A stretch of DNA of 64,000 bases from a virus. Taxonomy: Duplodnaviria > Heunggongvirae > Uroviricota > Caudoviricetes. Every line of letters starts with the position of its first letter. Positions within the stretch are counted from its first letter, which is position 1. Positions 1,362 to 55,044 of the stretch are shown piece by piece. A model generated the notes under the pieces. That model ran no database searches, was not told the origin of the DNA, and saw only the letters and a program-made list of their open reading frames with translations. The stretch is from the IMG/VR virus record IMGVR_UViG_3300024333_000003; one strand, 5' to 3'. Made by a program: the position numbers and the translations under genes.

Positions 1362-2378
1362 ATGGTACATTTTATAAAAACCACAGGGAAAGAATTCGAT
1401 GAGGCATTAACTTTTCTAAAGACTTTGAAAGTAATAAACGTAGATACAGAGACTACAGGCATTGATGCCATACGTGATAAAATATTGTTAATACAAATGG
1501 GAAATATGTATCAACAATATGTCTTTGATGTCGCACGTTTACATGATAGCATCCAGTTATTACGCCCCTTCTTTGAGAGTCAAAGCATAACGAAAATAAT
1601 GCATAACGCAAAATTTGATTATAAATTCCTAAAAAGAGACCTGGGTATAGAAACAGAAAATATATTTGATACTATGTTAGCCGAACAATTGTTACAAAAA
1701 GGGCGAAAAATGTCCGGGTTCGGATTAGATGTAGTAAGTGAAAAATATACCGGTGTTTTGTTAAATAAAACAGTACGCCAGACGTTTCAAAATATGTCTT
1801 ACGGGGATGCAATAAGTACCCCACAAGTTGAATATGCGGCAGGTGATATAAAGCATTTGGCAGCAATAATGGACGCCCAACAAAAACTTATAATTAGAGA
1901 TAATTTGCAACAGGTTATAAATACTGAGATGGGTGTTATTATGGCTACTGGTGATATGGAATTAAATGGTATGAAAATAGACCGTACCAAATGGCTAGCA
2001 GCTGAAGCTGTGGCAAAACGTGAAAGAACTGTTGCCTTAGATAAGTTAGATAAAATGCTGATACCGTATATCGAAAATGACATTTTTGGAAGACCTATTA
2101 TTAATTATAACAGCCCAAAACAGTTACTTAACGTGCTACAAACGGCTGTCGACAAAAATATCACAACGACTCGTGAAGGGGAATTGAAAGAAATTAGTCA
2201 TCCCATTATCGATGCGTTGTTATATTATCGTGGAATGGAAAAACGTGTAACTACTTATGGTGAAGCGTTTTTAAAAAATATACACGAACTAACTGGATTA
2301 ATACATACTGAATTTAATCAAGCCGAAACTGATACCGGCAGGTATAGCAGTAAAAACCCTAAAATATTGGGGGTTTAA
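1362..2378 (+). CDS. polA: Family-A DNA polymerase, 5' part (3'-5' exonuclease domain plus N-terminal polymerase). It ends inside motif A at TGRYSSKNP, so the exon probably ends at nt 2360.
   Basis: Exo motifs (VDTETTG, YAAGD). The C-terminus TGRYSSKNP matches the start of the PolI motif TGRLSSSDPNLQNIP. The ORF terminates 4 codons into the intervening sequence. Confidence 0.8.
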   Translation: MVHFIKTTGKEFDEALTFLKTLKVINVDTETTGIDAIRDKILLIQMGNMYQQYVFDVARLHDSIQLLRPFFESQSITKIMHNAKFDYKFLKRDLGIETENIFDTMLAEQLLQKGRKMSGFGLDVVSEKYTGVLLNKTVRQTFQNMSYGDAISTPQVEYAAGDIKHLAAIMDAQQKLIIRDNLQQVINTEMGVIMATGDMELNGMKIDRTKWLAAEAVAKRERTVALDKLDKMLIPYIENDIFGRPIINYNSPKQLLNVLQTAVDKNITTTREGELKEISHPIIDALLYYRGMEKRVTTYGEAFLKNIHELTGLIHTEFNQAETDTGRYSSKNPKILGV

Positions 2379-2633
2379 TGAAAATTAAACAAAAAGGTGC
2401 TAATTCGAGGAAACGCTCAAAGAGCCAATCTCGAGCTAAACTTAAGAAGATTGTTTTATCTTTGTGGAAATCTAAACACCGACTTAAGAAACGTGTAACG
2501 ACTAGTCGAAAGACGTAGCGATAAGTATCGCGAAATACACCTCACATTTGTGATGAAATAGTCTGATCTATATAGTAATATATAGCTGGAAAATATTCCG
2601 GAGGTAATTTAACGCATTACCTCGAACAAAATG
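2361..2633 (+). other. Putative self-splicing group I intron (~273 nt, no ORF) interrupting polA between ...KNP and NLQNIP...
   Basis: The 5' exon ends in U (cct) and the intervening sequence ends in G. An internal guide GGGGUU (2370-2375) can pair with the exon end AACCCU (P1). An R-like element AACGACUAGUC (2497-2507) and S-like AAAUAGUCUGA (2556-2566) give a P7 pairing GACUA/UAGUC. Joining the two parts restores the conserved TGR.SS..PNLQNIP motif. Confidence 0.6.
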
Positions 2634-3431
2634 AACTTACAAAATATACCTGTAAAAGATACATCGCTATACCGTGAAGCATTTGTTGCTCACACGGACG
2701 AAGATTTGTTAGTAGATGCTGACTACTCAAATATGGAATTGCGAATTCTCGCAGACCTTTCAAAAGAACCTAAATGGATGGAAATTTTTGAAAAGAATTT
2801 AGATATGCACTGCGAAATTGGTTCCGTAGTTATGGGAAAACCTATACGACTAAAAGGTACTAATGGGCCCGACGACCCAGGTGAAAATCTTGAATTACGC
2901 AAAATTGTAAAATCGCTTAATTTCGGAATTTCATATGGAATGGGGGCACAAAAACTCGCGAGAGAAGCAAAAATACCTTTTGCGGAGGCCCGACAAATAA
3001 TTAATAGTTATTGGGCTAGTTTCCCAAACGTCAAAAACTTCTTTGACGCATATGTTGCGAAGTGCATAACTAATAGATGTGTGCGTTCGCCATATGATAA
3101 TAGATTGCGCTGGCTAGAAGGATTCGATTTCGATTCCAATAAAGAGCGCGCTCGCGTGCGTAATATGACAATGAATTTTCCGATGCAGTCGGGAAATGCT
3201 AGTATAACAAAAATTGCTCTTACACACATACGCGAAGAAATAAAAAAAAGTAAATCAACTGCAAAGATTATTTGCACAATTCATGATGAGATTATACTAA
3301 ACGTGAAAAAATCTCAGGCTGAAGAAGCCGAAGCTATGCTTCGAAAATGCATGTTAGAAGCAGGTGAGCTTTACGTAAAAAACGTAAAAATAAAAGTTGA
3401 ATCATGCATAGCCCCCTATTGGAAGAAATAA
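2631..3431 (+). CDS. polA: Family-A DNA polymerase, 3' part (polymerase palm/fingers). The spliced exon probably starts at 2634.
   Basis: NLQNIP at the N-terminus. O-helix/motif B RKIVKSLNFGISYGMG. Motif C HDEIIL. Confidence 0.8.
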   Translation: MNLQNIPVKDTSLYREAFVAHTDEDLLVDADYSNMELRILADLSKEPKWMEIFEKNLDMHCEIGSVVMGKPIRLKGTNGPDDPGENLELRKIVKSLNFGISYGMGAQKLAREAKIPFAEARQIINSYWASFPNVKNFFDAYVAKCITNRCVRSPYDNRLRWLEGFDFDSNKERARVRNMTMNFPMQSGNASITKIALTHIREEIKKSKSTAKIICTIHDEIILNVKKSQAEEAEAMLRKCMLEAGELYVKNVKIKVESCIAPYWKK

Positions 3432-3697
3432 TGAATGGATTTCAATATTATTTCATGAAGGGATTAGAACTGACAGAAGGTACTAAATTAACAGAATATG
3501 AGCGTTACAATATAGCAACAAAATATGCGCAAGGAATGGCATTATGTGACTTAACAGATAGCTTTCGCGTATTGACTGGTGCATTAAGTTCTATACCAGC
3601 GGAGCTGAATAAGTTGAACGATCGGTATTCAAGTACCAGTCTGGCTTATATAGCAAAAGACATCGAAAATATATCAAAATTTTTCTATAAAAATTAA
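3404..3697 (+). CDS. hypothetical protein
   Basis: ORF with compatible codon usage. Overlaps the polA end by 28 nt. Confidence 0.3.
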   Translation: MHSPLLEEIMNGFQYYFMKGLELTEGTKLTEYERYNIATKYAQGMALCDLTDSFRVLTGALSSIPAELNKLNDRYSSTSLAYIAKDIENISKFFYKN

Positions 3698-4074
3698 TGC
3701 AAGAATTTAATTCAGTAAAAGACAACGGAGTACGGGAAGAGTTTGTCACTGGCTCACGGAGAGATACTCGTGAAGGTAAAGGACGTTTTGATCTAATACC
3801 CACAATACCTCTGCGTAGATTAGCAAGACATTACGAAAACGGTGCTGTAAAATATGGTGATCGTAACTGGGAAAAAGGTCAGCCATTAGGCCGTTATCTA
3901 GATAGTGCTTTCAGACACTTAATATGTGTCATGGAGGGACAAACTGACGAGGATCATGTTAGTGCAGTAAGTTGGAATATGTTCGCATATTTACATACAT
4001 TGGAACGTATCAACAATGGAGAACTGCCTGTAGAACTTGATGACATCGGACATAGTAAAAGACCTAAAGTATAA
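3697..4074 (+). CDS. putative dATP/dGTP diphosphohydrolase-like (MazG-like N-terminal domain) protein
   Basis: RFDLIPTIPLRRLARHYENGAVKYGDRNWEKG resembles the phage dNTP pyrophosphohydrolase N-terminal domain family. Confidence 0.4.
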   Translation: MQEFNSVKDNGVREEFVTGSRRDTREGKGRFDLIPTIPLRRLARHYENGAVKYGDRNWEKGQPLGRYLDSAFRHLICVMEGQTDEDHVSAVSWNMFAYLHTLERINNGELPVELDDIGHSKRPKV

Positions 4075-4122: not shown

Positions 4123-4794
4123 TTAAGGTAATTCTATAGGTATAATTTTTGTACAGCGTACTAATGCACTTTCCATAACAATATATTGTTGTCCTTGTAT
4201 TGTCATTTGATGACTTTGAATCATGCAATTCTCTGCATAAAAAGCTGCGACCCATGGACCGGCACCTTCAGCAATTTGTGTAACAGTGTCGCTGCTTTGA
4301 TACAAAATGGCCAATCCAAAAGGTGTATTAAAGAATGATGATGCTAAGTTCATATAGAATTTACCGCCTGTTTCAACTGATGGATCCGATGCATTATATG
4401 CTTGTTCAAATCCAGGTGCATCGTCTCTAGTTGTTGGAGTAACTGCAGTTGATTTATCAGTTATAGCTCCCAACAACGAATTTCCATTGAATACTACTCT
4501 ATTCAATTGTATTTGTGCATAGGTTCGACCTGGTAACAAGTAAGGTACACGTGACCCTAATTCAAATAATTGAATAATATTTTTATTCTGCTGTATAGAC
4601 GCTGAGTCAGTAAGCCCGATTGGAACTAAGTCGGTTACGTTCCCACTAAAGACTGCCGGACCTGCGGCAAGTACTATAGATTCTGCAGAAATAAAATTAT
4701 TGAGTTTTCCATCAGGTAATAAAATATCCTGCTGTTGTGCATGCTTCGTTTTAAACTCCCATTGTGCAACGGTTGACGTTGTTTCTACTGCCAT
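4123..4794 (-). CDS. hypothetical structural protein, tail tube-like by position downstream of the sheath candidate
   Basis: 223 aa, beta-rich composition. Last gene of the operon before the terminator. Confidence 0.3.
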   Translation of the reverse strand: MAVETTSTVAQWEFKTKHAQQQDILLPDGKLNNFISAESIVLAAGPAVFSGNVTDLVPIGLTDSASIQQNKNIIQLFELGSRVPYLLPGRTYAQIQLNRVVFNGNSLLGAITDKSTAVTPTTRDDAPGFEQAYNASDPSVETGGKFYMNLASSFFNTPFGLAILYQSSDTVTQIAEGAGPWVAAFYAENCMIQSHQMTIQGQQYIVMESALVRCTKIIPIELP

Positions 4795-4808
4795 GATAAT
4801 TTATCTCC

Positions 4809-6452
4809 TTAGAATATCAAATCGATCTTAATATAATTTACTGGATATGGTGGTAATATTGTTATACTTACCAACACAGTATCCCTGCTTACAGTATCCT
4901 GTGCAACAGATGCTACAACAAAATCATTCAAAATTCCATCACGTATTAACAAGCTACCGGCGCCCTTTATCGCGATTGTAATCATATCTAATGTAGCACG
5001 ATTAATTACATATCTACCAATAAATGGCTCTACGGCACTACGTACAAATTTCGCTGTATAATCTACAGTTTTTGTAATACTTACTTCACGTTTTTCTATC
5101 GAACTCATGTCGGTCGATAACTGATGACGACATACGATAGGAGACGTGAGTTTTGATTGCTTCAAAATATAAGTTCCGCCTTGTGCGATTGTATTTAATT
5201 GTGCTTCAGTGAAATAATCGGAACTATATTTTAGTGAATTAATGTTTGCTAACGAAAGGTTCGTCATTGGTTGTTGTGGTGTATTTCCCGCAATCATGCC
5301 TGCTACTGCTGGCACACCTATTACTGAAATAGGTACTGGTACATAAGCATAAAAGAACACATCACCAGTTTCCATAGCATGCGCTCTTAATGCCAACCAT
5401 AGTGCTTCAGTTATTTCTACACCAAGTCCAGCAACTGGACGAACTGTGTAATTTCGGTAAGCTGTTTGTGAATTGGTGGCACTAAATGTTACTAATTGAT
5501 CGATGTATGCATTTACAGTTACACTATAACCGCTCGTATATAAATCACTAATATACTGGGGTCTCAATGTTGAGATATGTCTTAGTTCTCTTATAAATGC
5601 TACATCAGGGAAAACGTAAATAACGCGTTTTGCGCCTACGCCGGCCGACATTGCAGAATAAGCGGTCGCAGTAGCTGCTTTTGATGCACCCCAAGGAATC
5701 TTAGGCCCACCAAACACTATTCGCTCTTTCTTAGCTGTCGATAACGACATAGCGTTTACATGTGTTTTATAATTTGCAATAATTGCTGTATCATAAGTTA
5801 ATGGCGCTAACGCGTACACTTCTTTTGCTTCTAAATCTGTCATAGCCAACGTGTGACTTGCTGAGGCAGTTGCAATACCTGACACATTACAAGTAATAGA
5901 TGCAAAATCGTCAACAACAGTTCCGTATGCATATGTAGCTGCGTTACCGTTATTCAAAGTCTCGACCAACGCAAATCCCAACGGATTCAGCGCCGATACA
6001 TCTGTCATTTCATCTACAACGGCTTGTAAAGATTCATATAATTCTACCGACATCAGATCTGAACGTAATGCGCGATAACCGATAAACACAGAGGCGCCAT
6101 TCCAATCAGCATTAGCCGGAACGGTCACTGTGCCGGCATTCGCATCTATCGTCAGTCCACTTGCTATAATAAGACGAGATCCCACTGGATTGGTCACTGT
6201 ACCAGTAGCTTTCATAACTAGATCAACATAGACTGACGTCGAATCTAAAGCCATTCCTGCTTCAAAACCATGCAATGTATAAGTTGTCTGTGAGCCATCA
6301 AATACAGCATAATCACTGTCTTTGGTTGAATCTAATGCTTCTACATGGTACGCTGGGCCAATAACAGCCGGTACTAAATCTGGCTGAATTAGTGTTGGAG
6401 AAACTGTCTTTTGAATTTGATTTACCTCTACTTGAGGCGGATTATATGCCAT
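4809..6452 (-). CDS. putative contractile tail sheath-like protein
   Basis: 547 aa with Thr/Ser/Ala/Val-rich composition typical of sheath proteins, followed by a ~220-aa tube-sized gene. No motif-level proof. Confidence 0.35.
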   Translation of the reverse strand: MAYNPPQVEVNQIQKTVSPTLIQPDLVPAVIGPAYHVEALDSTKDSDYAVFDGSQTTYTLHGFEAGMALDSTSVYVDLVMKATGTVTNPVGSRLIIASGLTIDANAGTVTVPANADWNGASVFIGYRALRSDLMSVELYESLQAVVDEMTDVSALNPLGFALVETLNNGNAATYAYGTVVDDFASITCNVSGIATASASHTLAMTDLEAKEVYALAPLTYDTAIIANYKTHVNAMSLSTAKKERIVFGGPKIPWGASKAATATAYSAMSAGVGAKRVIYVFPDVAFIRELRHISTLRPQYISDLYTSGYSVTVNAYIDQLVTFSATNSQTAYRNYTVRPVAGLGVEITEALWLALRAHAMETGDVFFYAYVPVPISVIGVPAVAGMIAGNTPQQPMTNLSLANINSLKYSSDYFTEAQLNTIAQGGTYILKQSKLTSPIVCRHQLSTDMSSIEKREVSITKTVDYTAKFVRSAVEPFIGRYVINRATLDMITIAIKGAGSLLIRDGILNDFVVASVAQDTVSRDTVLVSITILPPYPVNYIKIDLIF

Positions 6453-8346: not shown

Positions 8347-8536
8347 TAGGCACTAAAAGCATATGAAAATCCTTATCCACTTGATCAACTAACGCTTTCA
8401 CTTTTGGACTATCTTCCTCGTATATATCTAATTCCAATCTCCACACATGTGTAGATTTCATGCGTTTGATGCCTACGATATTAATTTTTATAGTTTTGTC
8501 TTGAATAGTTTCTTCAGATTCTTCCGTTGATTCCAT
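8321..8536 (-). CDS. hypothetical small acidic protein
   Basis: 71-aa ORF. Confidence 0.25.
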   Translation of the reverse strand: MESTEESEETIQDKTIKINIVGIKRMKSTHVWRLELDIYEEDSPKVKALVDQVDKDFHMLLVPIDNQQNNT

Positions 8537-10521
8537 AATCCCATACTTAATCCAGTGGCTAGGTCGATACCTATACCAGTGGCTATTCCTTTTCCAATAT
8601 TTTTATTAAACTCATTTTTCGATGAGGTGGCTGCAGTTACCGCAGTACCAATTACAGGGCCAGCAACCAATGATGGTAACAAATATTCTTTTGTCATATG
8701 TTTCCAATCTATTCCGCCCGTCTTTGGCATATTTGCCAAATTATCACCCAGAATCGGTATACTATCTTCGGTTTGCATTTGTTGTGGATCGTCCGGCGGT
8801 ATACGCATTTCCTTTAATCTGGCTATGTTTAATTGCGCATCTGGTCTTGTTGGTTTAAATTTCAGTTTAATTAATCCAGTCTTAGTAAATGCTGGATGAT
8901 AATTACTCATAGAATCTCCTAATACAGGCATTGGTGCAGATGTATCGTTTAATGTAGCTGTCTGAACAGTCTTTAAACCTTTATGTATTTTTGGATCCGG
9001 TGCTTTTTTGTGAAACGGTTCAAGTAATGCAGCTTGTTTGCGTCTTGGCCAAGTTTCACTTCTAATGTCTTTGTATACAGGCATACGAAGTGCACCACTT
9101 GGTAATTTCTCCTGCGCCAGCACACGCGCTACCTGTCCTACATATTTATTTGGAAGTTCAAACATTTCTTTTCTCATTTGATCTGTGAATCCACTACCAA
9201 CCCGACCAATTTCCTCTTTACCATTGTATGAATAAGTAAATCCACCAGCAGCTTTATTTTTATATTTTCCTTCCCCCGGAAATACCGACATTATACGTAC
9301 ATCATAATCTTTGAATAATTTTGCCTTCAATGGTACCGACTTATTTAAATCATATACTACAACGCCCTCTTGTGTTAACGGATGGTTGCCAGAACGTATT
9401 TCATCTAGTAATACTTGTTTTTCATTTATAGTCGTCGCTAGCGGCGGCATTTTTAATTCTGGTATTTCTTTTGAAATATTTTTTAGTATCTCGAGTTTTT
9501 CACTATATGGATGACTACTTACATCTTTACCTTGATAACGAACCACATCAAAAACTACATGATCAAGCGGCGCGTTTTCTTGGAGTTCTCTTGAACGCCA
9601 TACATTTGACAATAATCTAGCTGCAGTGTCTCTTGATGATAAAACATTACCAGATGTTCTATCTTTTGCAAATAGTTCTCCTAATAATACTGTTTTGCCT
9701 GGCATACTCTCCGGAACTATTGCAGTATGAAGTCCAGTACGAAACGTATGATTAATTAACTTTGCAGGTCCTTTCTTGCTTGGACGATAAGAGTATATTT
9801 CAATAGGCATTCCACGTCTAAGCAAAAACGCATTCATTGCTCCATCATACTTCGGTGCTAATATCTCGGTCGACTTTGTTACATCGATGGATTCAGGCTT
9901 TATACTTTGAAATTTAGGTTTCGAAATGTTAACTTCTGGTCGAGTATCTCGCGTAGGTGTAGAGTTCATAAACAGCCAATCATCCCCACCAGTATGTATT
10001 AAAGTATATTTTTCAGTGTCGCCATTAGACTTATACACATTAAAAGATACATGATCAGGTGTACTTTTAGTAACTTCAACCTTATCCGCTGAGAATAACT
10101 TTACTGTTCCAGCGCCGTAACCTGATTTGATTTCACCAGACCATGCCGAGTACTCTGCAGTATGATCAGGTTGATGCACAGCAAGAACTTTTTCGCCTGG
10201 AAACTTAGGTAAGTTACGAGCGGCCCAACTATGTGCAATTCCGGTACGTGGATCAACAAGTCGTAAATCGAAATGTTCTCCAGCCTTATGCGCTTTATGC
10301 TGTTGCACATTAAAGTGCCAATTTTCTGGTGTAGAGAATTCGCGTGGACGTGTTTTTACGTCCCGATCAGGAATACCTAAAGCACCTGCTTTTCCTTTAT
10401 GCTTAAAATATTCAACCTGTTGAAGTCTATGTACAGCCGCTGAACGTGATGAATACGGCCCGCCCAAATTCTTGCCTTTTTCGGACAATACGTGCCAACC
10501 GTCTTTTCTATGTACTATCAT
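8488..10521 (-). CDS. LigD-type 3'-phosphoesterase (PE) domain fused to an ATP-dependent polynucleotide ligase, with a C-terminal Gly-zipper/hydrophobic tail
   Basis: N-terminus EHFDLRLV...AHSWAARNLP...YGAGTVKLFSADK matches the LigD PE signature (H.D.RLE...SWAVPKGP...YGAG). Ligase motif I KYDG in APKYDGAMNAF. Motif IV EGVVVYDL. C-terminus VAGPVIGTAVTAA...GIATGIGIDLATGLSMGLW. Confidence 0.75.
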   Translation of the reverse strand: MIVHRKDGWHVLSEKGKNLGGPYSSRSAAVHRLQQVEYFKHKGKAGALGIPDRDVKTRPREFSTPENWHFNVQQHKAHKAGEHFDLRLVDPRTGIAHSWAARNLPKFPGEKVLAVHQPDHTAEYSAWSGEIKSGYGAGTVKLFSADKVEVTKSTPDHVSFNVYKSNGDTEKYTLIHTGGDDWLFMNSTPTRDTRPEVNISKPKFQSIKPESIDVTKSTEILAPKYDGAMNAFLLRRGMPIEIYSYRPSKKGPAKLINHTFRTGLHTAIVPESMPGKTVLLGELFAKDRTSGNVLSSRDTAARLLSNVWRSRELQENAPLDHVVFDVVRYQGKDVSSHPYSEKLEILKNISKEIPELKMPPLATTINEKQVLLDEIRSGNHPLTQEGVVVYDLNKSVPLKAKLFKDYDVRIMSVFPGEGKYKNKAAGGFTYSYNGKEEIGRVGSGFTDQMRKEMFELPNKYVGQVARVLAQEKLPSGALRMPVYKDIRSETWPRRKQAALLEPFHKKAPDPKIHKGLKTVQTATLNDTSAPMPVLGDSMSNYHPAFTKTGLIKLKFKPTRPDAQLNIARLKEMRIPPDDPQQMQTEDSIPILGDNLANMPKTGGIDWKHMTKEYLLPSLVAGPVIGTAVTAATSSKNEFNKNIGKGIATGIGIDLATGLSMGLWNQRKNLKKLFKTKL

Positions 10522-31992: not shown

Positions 31993-34653
31993 TTAATTAT
32001 TAAATGCAGAGGCACGGTAATATAATTCTGCAGCCAGGTCTCCATACAAAATGCTATGGAAGGTGTCGTCGGCGGCAGACTTAATATATCTGTACGTGTT
32101 CTTTTCTTCGTTATATTCAATCGCAATAGCCAGTATATCTTTCGCATAATATTGAAAGTCACTCCATTGCGGGAAAACGATCTTCCGCTGTTTTATCTTA
32201 GTAAATAAATCAGTCATCACGGTGTTGCGAGATAAGGTATATGCCTGAATATGCCCATTGAACTGACCACGTTGTTTTTGATTCGGCACATGTTGAAATG
32301 CTATTAATCTGGTTTTATCATTTATACGATTTCGTACTTCAGCATTCACTGCCTCACCAAAACCGGCATCAGCTCCTATTAATGCACAGCCCCATCTGTA
32401 ATATTCTGCCGGTATATGCTCATGTAGATAAGCATAATCAGCTTCTTTACCTTCATACTTATGTAGGTAGATTATTTCTGTAACATCACCGCGACGTTGC
32501 GAAATTGTCATCAACGTTTTTGACATTTCGCTGTTAATTGGCCCCCAGTCCATTCCCATAAACGTGGGATAATCTCTGGTGCGACGATCTGGTTCCTGAA
32601 TCATTGGCCCACCAGTGCAACATGCTTTAATTTCCTCTTCGGTTACTGGAGCGACACCGGCATCATATGGTAGCCCTAGATACTCGTTAAAAAATACGCC
32701 TTTGGATTTTGTTTGAAATGGTATATAAACATCCGTCTGCCAATTTACCCAAGGCGCGTGGGCAAACATTAAAACACTAACTCTAAACCCCTCAAACAAG
32801 TACGATCCATCATGAATAGATTTGTCTGATTCGGGATTTGTACGCACCCATTGTCCGTTGCGCGCGTCTAGAGACATTTTGCAATATCTACAAGCAAGCC
32901 CCCATGGTTGAATGTTTTCTTCGTCAAGAAAGTTTTGTTTCTCACAATGCTGGCATTTTGCAATCCATTCATTTCTAGTAGTCTGACGCCATCGATTTGC
33001 TAATGGCCCGATAATATGTTTTGGAGTTCCTGCATATATCGAATGTTTGTAAAATGATCGCGCCATTGTTTGTTCAATGACATCGATGTTATCATCGGGA
33101 ATATCTTGGATTTCGTCCAGACACTGATGACACACTATAGGTAACTTTTCTATCGCATCTCTTACAAAAATCAAGTGATTCTTTACGCCGACACAATAAA
33201 CTGGTCCAATGTAATCTATATATTCGATGCGCGAATTATTTGTATATCCGTTCCAAAATATTATGCTGTCTTTTTTATAGCGTCCGACGTTATATAAAAT
33301 TGTTCCGTTATATGCTGGTTTTCGACTTCTAATACTACAAAGATACCCCAAGCGAAGCCATGCCTCCTGTACTGTATTTGCTAACTCGATTGATGCTGTA
33401 ACTAACTGTCCCCCGTTATGACCGAAGTCTTGTACATGCATGGCATCTCCTTTATATAAGGCATTTAAAAGGTCCGGTAGATATTGTATGTAATTTAATA
33501 ATTCCCTAGGTATATATTTATCATGCGAGGTGCCCAAAGCATATAAGTATCTAGATAAAGCAGCGTTTGCAAAGTAAAATGTATTACATACAGCATTTTT
33601 ATTATGTCTGGCAACAACGCCCCATTTAACTCCCATTGCTGTTAAGCAATGTCGAATTTCGTCTGAGTATGCACCTTCGTTTTGTATTATACGTATTTGT
33701 CCCGCAGGAGATATATACCCCTCAGCTAAAAACCACCCCATAAATTGCATGAAAATTTTCAATGGCGCTGAAAAACTGGGTATCTTTTTGGGATATTTAT
33801 ACGGAGATCCGTCTAACTTATTTGCAACAATTTGTTCAGGTAATTTAAAATCGACGGGATTGGCTGACTCCCAATTTCCCCTAACACCTAATTTAAAATT
33901 TTTTCCTGCTAACTGTTGTGCTTTTATATTAAACCAGCCTTTAACTTTTGGATTCTGATAGTAACCAGTACTTAATTCCTGTGATACGTTCATTATATGA
34001 TCAGGGGTCACGCAAAGATTAAAACTGCGCTGCGTAAATTTAACTAGTTTACCTTGATATGCTTTTTGGATATACATATCGGGTAAATGATATTCTACCA
34101 TTCCCGTTTTGTCATTTACTGTAGCAACTCTTTCATCGTCGAGAAGATTTTTAAATAATTTCCAACCATTCTCGGTGAGAATTTCTGTATTTGCATCAAA
34201 ACAATTCATGTCAGCAGATATACCACGAATACGATCGGCAGTTGCAGATCCATAACGTAAATAAATAACACTACCATTAAGGAAACGTTTTTGGAATACG
34301 TTTTGAATTGTGGAACTACTTACAAAATATTTTTTAAATATCGGGCTTTGTTCTATAACAGTATCAACACGATCATATGAAAATACGCGTACCTGTTCAA
34401 CAGTGGGCGATACTGCCAAAATTTTAAATCCACCCTTATGCCTGTTGCTAACATATGGCATTAAAATACATTTAGCTAACATGAAATTTGACAGCGTGGT
34501 AGATTTAGCGACTTGGCGACTCGTATGTAAACACAACTTCATTGGATCAATATCATAAATCAATTTCATGTGTGGATAGTCATCCAAACTGAATGGTTCA
34601 TTATTAAGATAAAAAAACTTTTGTACGAAGTCTGATAATTTAAATTGTAACAT
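31993..34653 (-). CDS. terL: terminase large subunit interrupted by an intein (extein ~526 aa)
   Basis: N-terminal deviant Walker A TSRQVAKST. A Walker-B-like LDE is reconstituted across the intein. C-terminal nuclease-sized domain. Confidence 0.7.
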   Translation of the reverse strand: MLQFKLSDFVQKFFYLNNEPFSLDDYPHMKLIYDIDPMKLCLHTSRQVAKSTTLSNFMLAKCILMPYVSNRHKGGFKILAVSPTVEQVRVFSYDRVDTVIEQSPIFKKYFVSSSTIQNVFQKRFLNGSVIYLRYGSATADRIRGISADMNCFDANTEILTENGWKLFKNLLDDERVATVNDKTGMVEYHLPDMYIQKAYQGKLVKFTQRSFNLCVTPDHIMNVSQELSTGYYQNPKVKGWFNIKAQQLAGKNFKLGVRGNWESANPVDFKLPEQIVANKLDGSPYKYPKKIPSFSAPLKIFMQFMGWFLAEGYISPAGQIRIIQNEGAYSDEIRHCLTAMGVKWGVVARHNKNAVCNTFYFANAALSRYLYALGTSHDKYIPRELLNYIQYLPDLLNALYKGDAMHVQDFGHNGGQLVTASIELANTVQEAWLRLGYLCSIRSRKPAYNGTILYNVGRYKKDSIIFWNGYTNNSRIEYIDYIGPVYCVGVKNHLIFVRDAIEKLPIVCHQCLDEIQDIPDDNIDVIEQTMARSFYKHSIYAGTPKHIIGPLANRWRQTTRNEWIAKCQHCEKQNFLDEENIQPWGLACRYCKMSLDARNGQWVRTNPESDKSIHDGSYLFEGFRVSVLMFAHAPWVNWQTDVYIPFQTKSKGVFFNEYLGLPYDAGVAPVTEEEIKACCTGGPMIQEPDRRTRDYPTFMGMDWGPINSEMSKTLMTISQRRGDVTEIIYLHKYEGKEADYAYLHEHIPAEYYRWGCALIGADAGFGEAVNAEVRNRINDKTRLIAFQHVPNQKQRGQFNGHIQAYTLSRNTVMTDLFTKIKQRKIVFPQWSDFQYYAKDILAIAIEYNEEKNTYRYIKSAADDTFHSILYGDLAAELYYRASAFNN
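33124..34203 (-). mobile_element. intein (360 aa) with a LAGLIDADG homing-endonuclease domain inside terL
   Basis: Block A CFDANTEILTENG. Block B CVTPDHIMNVS. LAGLIDADG-like FMGWFLAEGYIS and LLNALYKGDAMH. Block F VYCVGVKNHLIFV. Block G LPIVCHQ followed by +1 Cys (C-terminal Gln instead of Asn). Confidence 0.6.
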
Positions 34654-53773: not shown

Positions 53774-55044
53774 TATTCTGCCCTCGTTGTATTTGTAAAT
53801 TGATTTGAACTGCTGTCTGAGCCTGGTGAATATATACTCATATCTAATGGAAAAGGTGTACTTGTAGGTGATGCCGGGCCTTGTGCTTGATGTTGATGCT
53901 TAGCGTACTCGTCCTTGACCCAACTTTCTGTCACTAATCGCTGTTCATTACCGGATCCACCAATCTTAATTGTACCGTCCGCTTTAATCGTAACATCACC
54001 GCTAGCGGTAACAGTAATTACACATTTACCATTATCTAATATAATACCACCATCACTGGCAATATCTAATTTAACTTTATCATCGGCTAGACGTAGTATT
54101 AATGCACTTGAACCCGTGCCCATTGCTAATGAATATTTCTTACTTGCACCTTCGCCACTACCAATAATACTAAATTGATTGTCCACTGATGAATCCAGTA
54201 TTAGATCAACTTTAGCTTTAGCATCGTTGAAGGTCAGTGTGCTTATCAATGACTTCTCATCAAACTTCCACTGAACATTATTTTTTGTGTCAGTGTTTTT
54301 TACAGAATATAATAATGCACCATCGGTTGTCCATGTAATATCTGATGTAATTTTTAAATCTGTCTCAGCAAACGACAAAGCAATAATATTTTTGTCGCCT
54401 ATTGTACCAGTTAATGAATATATGGAAGATCCAGTTGAATCATAATTTTCTTTTATCCAAAAGTTAACAGTGCCTTTAGCTTCATCTGATTTACCAATAT
54501 CGATTATAAAATTATCTGGCTTAGTATCTGTTTTGTGTGTAGGTAATGCGGTAAGATCTTGATCCTTGGCATAATAGAATCGGTATATACCAGGTCTGAT
54601 ACTATTACTGCCTGTCCAATATTTAAAGGTTACATTTTTGAATTGTCCAAATAACGATTCAGCTCGTGGCTCTAATACTAATTGTGAATATTCAGATGTA
54701 TATAAACTTAATGATCCGTCACCGAATGCTTTAACATGTGTATTATCTGCACTAGCTAATACAAATCCACCAGGTTCAGATCTAGTAATTTCTCGCGCAA
54801 AACTACCTGGAACAAACCCCAGGATAAAAACCATATATGCAGAATCTTTAAAACATACAGCATATAAATTATCGCATTTACTAGCACCAGCACGAAATCC
54901 AGCACCTCGTCCTGTTGGCATCATAGACAGTACTGTTGCTACTTCAGCTAATGACGCTTCGCTCCTTTCAACTGCATTCATACGCTTGACCTTGAATCGA
55001 TAATCGTCCAGCTGTTCTAATACCTTAGCATAAAAAGTTTCCAT
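53773..55044 (-). CDS. tail/baseplate structural protein
   Basis: 423 aa, beta-rich. First gene of the operon. Confidence 0.3.
   Translation of the reverse strand: METFYAKVLEQLDDYRFKVKRMNAVERSEASLAEVATVLSMMPTGRGAGFRAGASKCDNLYAVCFKDSAYMVFILGFVPGSFAREITRSEPGGFVLASADNTHVKAFGDGSLSLYTSEYSQLVLEPRAESLFGQFKNVTFKYWTGSNSIRPGIYRFYYAKDQDLTALPTHKTDTKPDNFIIDIGKSDEAKGTVNFWIKENYDSTGSSIYSLTGTIGDKNIIALSFAETDLKITSDITWTTDGALLYSVKNTDTKNNVQWKFDEKSLISTLTFNDAKAKVDLILDSSVDNQFSIIGSGEGASKKYSLAMGTGSSALILRLADDKVKLDIASDGGIILDNGKCVITVTASGDVTIKADGTIKIGGSGNEQRLVTESWVKDEYAKHQHQAQGPASPTSTPFPLDMSIYSPGSDSSSNQFTNTTRAE

Follow-up and report, generated by a model that had tools for sequence, protein, structure and literature searches.

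RESULTS

A DNA polymerase gene interrupted by 273 nucleotides

IMG/VR virus record IMGVR_UViG_3300024333_000003 was analyzed as one stretch of 64,000 nucleotides (nt), referred to below as the window. On its plus strand, to which the coordinates below refer unless a minus strand is given, the open reading frame (ORF) list and Pfam reveal a family A DNA polymerase gene in two pieces, located after genes for an SLT transglycosylase and a sigma factor; the sequence that separates the two pieces is the subject of this report. The upstream ORF (1362-2378) runs to ...TDTGRYSSKNP, adds KILGV, and then meets a stop codon, and the downstream ORF (2631-3431) starts M-NLQNIP. Exon 1 (1362-2360; last codon CCU) encodes the 3'-5' exonuclease domain, with a Pfam match to DNA_pol_A_exo1 (E = 3.8e-35), together with the N-terminal part of the polymerase domain. 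Exon 2 (2634-3431) encodes NLQNIP..., motif A, then motifs B and C, and ends with the stop codon. The intervening segment, 2361-2633, is 273 nt long, is preceded by T2360, has G2633 as its last base, and contains stop codons in all three frames, which rule out an intein at this place.

The initial annotation of the window had proposed that joining the ORF ends TGRYSSKNP and M-NLQNIP restores a conserved polymerase motif, and that the 273-nt interruption follows a U and ends in G. Both proposals were borne out, with coordinates that proved exact. The DNA_pol_A profile is matched at positions 29-126 by the upstream piece and at 127-380 by the downstream piece (E = 2.8e-61), and because the profile resumes at 127 directly after 126, excising 2361-2633 restores it with no residue gained or lost. 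Moreover, in alignments of the joined 598-residue protein with ten uninterrupted homologues, no gap opens at the junction. The mRNA alone would permit the junction to shift by 1 to 2 bases, because the intron and exon 2 both start with AA; the boundaries are nevertheless fixed at 2361-2633, because no other option combines a U before the intron with a terminal G, as the group I rule has it. The predicted spliced junction is the 31-mer AGCAGTAAAAACCCTAACTTACAAAATATAC.

Rfam evidence for a group I intron

A 601-nt slice (2200-2800) was scanned against Rfam, with a gathering cut-off of 50 bits. Intron_gpI (RF00028) matched 2351-2585 at 69.4 bits (E = 1.5e-17) over model positions 1-253, the full model. 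The intron region also folds with a z-score of -5.7 relative to dinucleotide shuffles. A group II intron or an IStron was ruled out, there being no such Rfam match in the slice, and so was translational bypassing, because the spacer is too long for it at 273 nt and, moreover, forms a ribozyme. Together with the full core and the covariation described below, the Rfam match, which lies above the gathering score, upholds the initial assignment to group I. Thus, there is almost no doubt that 2361-2633 is a genuine self-splicing group I intron.

Relatives with and without the intron

A megablast search of the polymerase gene against 50,697 phage records found nothing, and the best polymerase in the phage database was only ~32% identical; the phage thus has no named close relative. 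Metagenome proteins included many uninterrupted polymerase homologues of ~600 residues (50-71% identity) as well as several products of ~335-344 residues that end just after TGRYSSxxP. In one relative, L007 (71% identical), the site between the Pro and Asn codons (hereafter Pro/Asn, a slash marking the junction) is uninterrupted and reads AGTAATCCT/AACCTACAAAATATACC, while the gene order ThiF-SLT-sigma-PolA-dGTP_diPhyd_N is the same as in the window. The comparison with uninterrupted homologues that the initial annotation had suggested thus supports it, both in the ten gap-free alignments and in this syntenic, uninterrupted gene.

Other relatives carry introns at the same Pro/Asn site. L005 has an ORF-less intron of 270 nt (Rfam, 59 bits), L003 and L004 have a 684-nt intron with an HNH_3 ORF, L006 has a 694-nt intron with an HNH_3 ORF, and L002, a more distant viral contig, has an ORF-less intron of 292 nt (Rfam, 90 bits). 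In every one of these genes, the exon before the intron has CCU at its end, and the last base of the intron is G. The description of the window intron as very short is therefore correct only in a relative sense, given the two ORF-less relatives at the same site and the 320-nt td intron of the T4-like phage HP3. Among the relatives, intron identity is 68-78% and flanking exon identity 61-74%; a recent horizontal transfer was considered and is unsupported, as introns and exons have diverged about equally. The window intron itself is 100% identical in five loci from separate samples, and 17 contigs from JGI, ENA, and Logan assemblies encode the exon 1 product, the longest of them (ERZ27250193 k141_197835) being ~215 kilobases (kb); SRR35384740 and SRR7616076 are among the other samples with this phage. 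These data indicate a phage circulating with this intron allele. The host of the intron is an uncultured phage of ~215 kb.

Secondary structure and covariation

The secondary structure was drawn by hand from the Rfam model alignment, and every pair was checked. It has fourteen helices, P1 to P9.2, all made of standard pairs, and the core helices and joining segments are all of consensus length. P1 pairs the exon end AAACCCU (2354-2360) with the internal guide GGGGUUU (2370-2376) in 7 of 7 standard pairs; the initial annotation had recognized this guide as GGGGUU with AACCCU (2355-2360), which is confirmed and extended by A2354-U2376. The U2360-G2370 wobble marks the 5' splice site, and this U-G pair is invariant in four homologues. 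P2, a hairpin AAU GAAA AUU (2377-2386), is also predicted by RNAalifold. P3 (AGGUG, 2395-2399, with CACCU, 2538-2542; 5 of 5 pairs) encloses P4 to P6, the 5' strand of P7, P7.1, and P7.2. Within it lie P4 (2405-2410 with 2429-2434), P5 (2415-2418 with 2422-2425), flanked by A-rich J4/5 and J5/4, P6 (2435-2436 with 2493-2494), and P6a (CUUAAG, 2441-2446, with CUUAAG, 2483-2488), which closes a 36-nt loop (2447-2482). The guanosine-binding helix P7 pairs GACUA (2500-2504) with UAGUC (2559-2563) in 5 of 5 pairs, as initially annotated; it is invariant in all homologues, forms a pseudoknot with P3, and has strands that agree with the Rfam consensus AGACUA and AUAGUC.

Downstream of the 5' strand of P7 come P7.1 (GUC GAAA GAC, 2505-2514), a GUA linker (2515-2517), and P7.2 (GCGAU AAGU AUCGC, 2518-2531). 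P8 (CAC AUUU GUG, 2543-2552) has 3 base pairs (bp), against 5-7 bp in the relatives. P9 (2568-2574 with 2579-2585; GUAA loop), P9.1 (2586-2591 with 2596-2601), and P9.2 (2602-2608 with 2616-2622) are arranged in the same way as in the td intron. The terminal G at 2633 is the 3' splice site, where the window intron ends ...GAACAAAAUG and the td intron ends ...GAACAUAAUG. P10 was looked for as well, but the first bases of exon 2 can form no more than 2 bp with intron positions 7-8, which is not convincing. In subgroup IA2, P7.1 and P7.2 lie between P7 and the 3' strand of P3 and are joined by G-U-A (PMC3428280). With P7.1-GUA-P7.2 at 2505-2531, the window intron is assigned, from its sequence, to subgroup IA2 and is td-like.

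Covariation was evaluated in an alignment of four sequences: the window, L005, and the cores of L003 and L006. As many as 89.5% of the cells were paired in the structure, compared with 26-45% when the 3' partners were slid, a contrast that is inflated because the tested structure came from one of only four sequences. Twenty-one pairs changed on both sides; the slid controls had 2-4 such pairs and the shuffles 10.6, with none of 500 shuffles reaching 21. Most of the compensatory changes fall in P3 (3 of 5 pairs, with 100% of cells paired), P7.2 (4 of 5), P9, and P9.2 (5 of 7); P7.1 contributes 1 of its 3 pairs. Furthermore, RNAalifold with no structure supplied recovered P1, P2, P4, P5, P7, P7.1, P7.2, P9, P9.1, and P9.2, with 24 pairs changed on both sides.

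These data bear on the view that the two ORFs encode a split polymerase, in which an N-terminal piece with the exonuclease (338 residues) and a C-terminal piece (266 residues), the latter started at the AUG at 2631, assemble without splicing. The Asn codon does have an AUG (2631-2633) immediately upstream, gene callers predict two proteins, and exon 1 of the cyanophage Pf-WMP3 polymerase alone has exonuclease activity (PMC3428280). Nonetheless, a split polymerase is exceedingly improbable. A complete ribozyme, maintained by covariation, makes up the spacer, and the break falls inside a contiguous conserved motif that close relatives keep within a single uninterrupted gene. The AUG at the junction corresponds to the ...AAUG end of a td-like intron and is not conserved; the introns of L005 and L003 end in AAGG and that of L002 in AACG, so that these genes have no start codon at the junction.

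A relic endonuclease ORF and the history of the intron

The window intron had been called ORF-less. This holds insofar as it has no functional endonuclease gene, but protein alignment and tblastn identified a vestigial HNH ORF of 46 codons at 2378-2518, which reads MKIKQKGANSRKRSKSQSRAKLKK...KKRVTTSRKT. It consists of the first ~33 and the last ~13 codons of an HNH gene, fused in frame, with the HNH catalytic region gone; the tblastn matches of the L003 and L006 HNH ORFs in the window intron lie at 2384-2476 and 2477-2515. Its AUG (2378-2380) is inside P2, and its UAG stop is made of bases of the GUA linker and the first base of P7.2. Intact HNH ORFs of 178-182 residues are present in L003, L004, and L006. 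In L003 and L006, the ORF starts in P2, reads through the 5' strands of P3 to P6, and forms a loop out of P6a; its last codons encode ...RVTTSRKT, and its stop codon falls in the linker between P7.1 and P7.2. Alignment with these two introns identifies the 2447-2482 loop of the window as the scar of an HNH gene deletion of ~411 nt. L005 has a similar deletion with other end-points, and the relic ORF is kept in frame in both of these differently bounded deletions.

The HNH protein of L003 is 34% identical to I-PfoP3I, the endonuclease of the Pf-WMP3 intron, over 162 residues (E = 1e-23) and 38-42% identical to intron endonucleases of phiL7 and other T7-like phages, while it resembles I-HmuI only at the HNH motif. 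These similarities place the endonuclease lineage with the Pf-WMP3/phiL7 type. The ancestor would thus have been a mobile intron of ~690 nt, whose I-PfoP3I-like HNH gene extended from P2, via P6a, to the P7.1/P7.2 linker; an in-frame deletion of ~411 nt would then have taken out the nuclease and left the 46-codon relic. As read from these alignments, the window intron is a nuclease-less, non-autonomous derivative, a stage expected late in the homing-endonuclease life cycle. Since the endonuclease is lost, this copy is probably immobile unless an endonuclease acts in trans. When the window was searched for a free-standing HNH gene that could mobilize it in trans, the only candidate was a weak tblastn match at 54541-54624 (E = 0.002) in a 423-residue ORF without a Pfam family, which was dropped. 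Altogether, the empty alleles, the 684-694-nt introns with HNH genes, and the 270-292-nt introns without them display the homing-endonuclease life cycle at one site.

The exon 1 frame stops at UAA (2376-2378), which overlaps the AUG of the relic ORF as UAAUG (2376-2380) inside P1/P2, a classic translational-coupling arrangement. The relic ORF might still be translated, with ribosome passage competing with folding of the core or the basic peptide aiding it, and polymerase production would then depend on the translation state. We regard this as very doubtful: constraints on the RNA alone explain the conservation, and L003, L005, and L006 do not share the UAAUG overlap. Moreover, a compensatory change that preserves P7.1 in L005 creates a premature stop in the relic ORF, which indicates selection on the RNA and not on the peptide.

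A related proposal is that the intron is functional but needs a cofactor or chaperone in vivo, or ribosome traffic via the relic ORF, so that polymerase output is regulated. The short peripheral P2 and P8 and the weak P10 would fit such a need, and the UAAUG could let terminating ribosomes reinitiate into the core; ORFs that reach into intron cores are known to need tight expression control (PMC3984707). The missing conservation of the overlap in the three relatives speaks against it, however, as does the self-splicing of td-type IA2 introns in vitro, including that of Pf-WMP3 (PMC3428280), and nothing in our data demands a cofactor. Dependence on such help is unlikely.

Weighing the evidence for splicing

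In the mechanism that we propose, the guide GGGGUUU would pair with the exon end AAACCCU after transcription to form P1, with the U-G wobble at the splice site. By group I chemistry, an external guanosine bound in P7 would attack after U2360, and the freed 3'-OH of the exon would then attack after G2633. Ligation of CCU to AAC would restore ...TGRYSSKNP-NLQNIP... and yield one 598-residue polymerase. Overall, we favor, at a probability of about 0.92, a td-type IA2 self-splicing intron that lies at a classic site of the polymerase gene and derives from a mobile intron of ~690 nt by loss of its nuclease.

Several points weigh against this interpretation. Splicing of 2361-2633 is a prediction. 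An exact look-up of the spliced 598-residue protein among ~15 billion public protein sequences did not find it, and pipelines annotate two polymerase ORFs rather than the spliced protein. Scans of the whole 64,000-nt window with Rfam, at the gathering threshold and at E <= 0.1, did not recover the intron, misses that we attribute to losses at the speed filter on an AT-rich target. With 3 bp in P8, 3-5 bp in P2, and at most 2 bp in P10, the ribozyme may be weak or need help. To these is added the inflated contrast with the slid controls.

Such points could also be taken to mean that the intron has decayed and no longer splices, leaving a polymerase pseudogene or one rescued by a second polymerase elsewhere in the ~215-kb genome. 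The lost endonuclease gene, a P8 of 3 bp where the relatives have 5-7 bp, and the weak P10 would agree with decay, as would the absence of the spliced protein from public collections; a second polymerase was looked for within 64 kb. Yet decay is highly unlikely, since the core is complete and its Rfam score is well above the cut-off, both exons are intact ORFs with strong Pfam scores, and the same allele, unchanged, is present on 17 contigs from several samples. In addition, the change in L005 that preserves P7.1 while stopping the relic ORF is a sign of selection on RNA structure.

If the intron splices as predicted, what is annotated as two polymerase ORFs and a 46-residue "hypothetical protein" should be annotated as one spliced 598-residue polymerase. 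The whole-window result is also a warning: in a 64-kb scan with default filtering, Rfam can overlook an AT-rich intron that scores 69 bits. A simple motif scan of the 64-kb window for ACGACTA...ATAGTC, specific to td-type cores, found no second core of this type.

Other genes of the window

Among the genes ahead of the polymerase, that for the SLT transglycosylase (40-558) is the 5'-most, and that for the sigma-70-type factor (561-1361) lies just ahead of the polymerase gene. Directly downstream of the polymerase, in a position kept in all relatives, a gene at 3697-4074 encodes a 125-residue PF18909 protein (E = 9e-19), the N-terminal domain of dATP/dGTP diphosphohydrolase. On the minus strand, 8488-10521 encodes a 677-residue protein composed of a LigD 3'-phosphoesterase domain, an ATP-dependent DNA ligase, and an OB domain; this phosphoesterase-ligase fusion is unusual for a phage ligase. 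The terminase large subunit (31993-34653, minus strand; 886 residues) has Pfam matches to GpA_ATPase at residues 39-138 and LAGLIDADG_3 at residues 396-461, and reads ...ISADMN/CFDANTEILTENG...LPIVCHQ/CLDEIQD. The insert looks like an intein of ~370 residues at the Walker B site, which, if true, would be the second selfish element of the window.

DISCUSSION

The insertion site in the polymerase gene

Motif A of family A polymerases, as defined by Delarue, is DYSxxELR. In the window polymerase, we take it to be DYSNMELR (2721-2744), starting 29 codons inside exon 2. The initial placement of the intron inside motif A was thus a mislabel: the intron lies between the Pro and Asn codons, KNP/NLQNIP, of the conserved motif TGRxSSxxPNLQNIP upstream of motif A. 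Nor is this position different from that of SPO1-like introns, as had been claimed. Gene 31 of SPO1, read directly, has an 882-nt intron at TGRLSSNEP/NAQQFP, and the polymerase of Pf-WMP3, whose sequence was also checked, is interrupted at TRLSSSKP/NIQQIP; both are at the same Pro/Asn junction. In E. coli numbering, the introns of SPO1, SP82, Bastille, and Pf-WMP3 are all at site 674, that of phiL7 is at 676, and those of PhiI and W31 are at 881 (PMC3428280). The window intron, at the E. coli Pro674/Asn675 junction, therefore occupies a recurrent and documented homing site, not a new one.

Two further sites of interruption were observed in polymerase genes of the relatives. L002 (IMGVR_UViG_3300046028_008523) has a second polymerase intron (4380-5410) inside motif A proper, at ADYSS/QELRIIAQ; an ORF of the LAGLIDADG type (282 residues) lies within it, and 5132-5342 matches group I weakly (25 bits). 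A third interruption hot spot is in motif B, right after ...(S/T)(I/L)NFG, in the proteins P0021, P0032, P0041, and P0063 and at 4490-5128 of L003. The polymerase gene of L003 is in three pieces (342, 68, and 163 residues), and 4514-4596 gives a partial match to group I.

Comparison with known introns

In blastn searches against phage genomes, the window intron matched introns of Staphylococcus phages, an intron in a Bacillus phage terminase gene, and the 3' ends of T4-like td introns, with 76.5% identity to a td-type intron over the last 83 nt. With the ORF-less td intron of HP3, it shares 69% identity along the whole length and 72% in the 3' half. The two introns have the same order of P7, P7.1, GUA, P7.2, P8, P9 (GNRA loop), P9.1, and P9.2 (UUAACG-type loop), and they share the end ...GAACAnAAUG; in both, exon 2 is annotated as beginning at the AUG of this end. 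They differ in their location, the td intron being at another site in another host gene, that for thymidylate synthase. The td intron of T4 itself carries the gene for the GIY-YIG endonuclease I-TevI in P6a.

The td-type core appears to be spread over many phage genes. The 26-mer GTGTAACGACTAGTYGAAARACGTAG, which covers J6/7, P7, P7.1, and the GUA linker, was found exactly in 31 viral and 65 metagenome loci (L016-L111). Only one of these, L063 from the window's own phage, is at the polymerase Pro/Asn site, and at most three others are near any polymerase gene. As it is nearly always elsewhere, the 26-mer belongs to td-type cores in general rather than to this site.

By blastn, local similarity to the window intron also extends to the polymerase introns of PhiI and W31, which are T7-like phages, and of vectreviruses. 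PhiI/W31-type introns are IA2 introns of phage family A polymerases with an HNH gene in P6a (PMC3428280). They are inserted far downstream, however, at 881 rather than 674, and in ULINTec4 the gene pieces encode 626 and 211 residues. In the OM43 phages MEP401 and MEP402, a family A polymerase is reported to occupy two ORFs with a "small unknown protein" between them, and whether an intron is involved is left open there (PMC10580990). This layout is like the exon-relic ORF-exon arrangement of the window and, by analogy, may reflect the same kind of compact intron.

At site 674 itself, the introns of the Bacillus phages SPO1, SP82, and Bastille, which encode I-HmuI, I-HmuII, and I-BasI, have the identical insertion site and are grouped as IA2 (PMC3428280). 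Unlike the window intron, they have an endonuclease with an N-terminal HNH, are three times longer, and reside in herelleviruses of Gram-positive hosts. The intron of Pf-WMP3 is like that of the window in being an IA2 intron with P7.1-GUA-P7.2 at the Pro/Asn site, between ...SSxxP and N(L/I)Q(N/Q)IP. It encodes the nicking HNH endonuclease I-PfoP3I and has no P2 (PMC3428280). In both Pf-WMP3 and the window's lineage, the endonuclease gene is looped from P6a and continues through P7 into P7.1/P7.2; in the window's relatives, it also overlaps P3 to P6 because it starts far further upstream, in P2. The window intron, at 273 nt against 672 nt in Pf-WMP3, has lost the endonuclease and possesses P2, P9.1, and P9.2, the last two of which have no counterpart in the Pf-WMP3 alignment. 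The hosts differ too, Pf-WMP3 being a T7-like podovirus and the window's host an uncultured phage of ~215 kb. Altogether, this is an ordinary td-type IA2 intron at a known site, and general knowledge of group I introns is unchanged by it. What it adds to the hosts of site-674 introns, previously Bacillus herelleviruses and a T7-like cyanophage, is a lineage of large uncultured phages.

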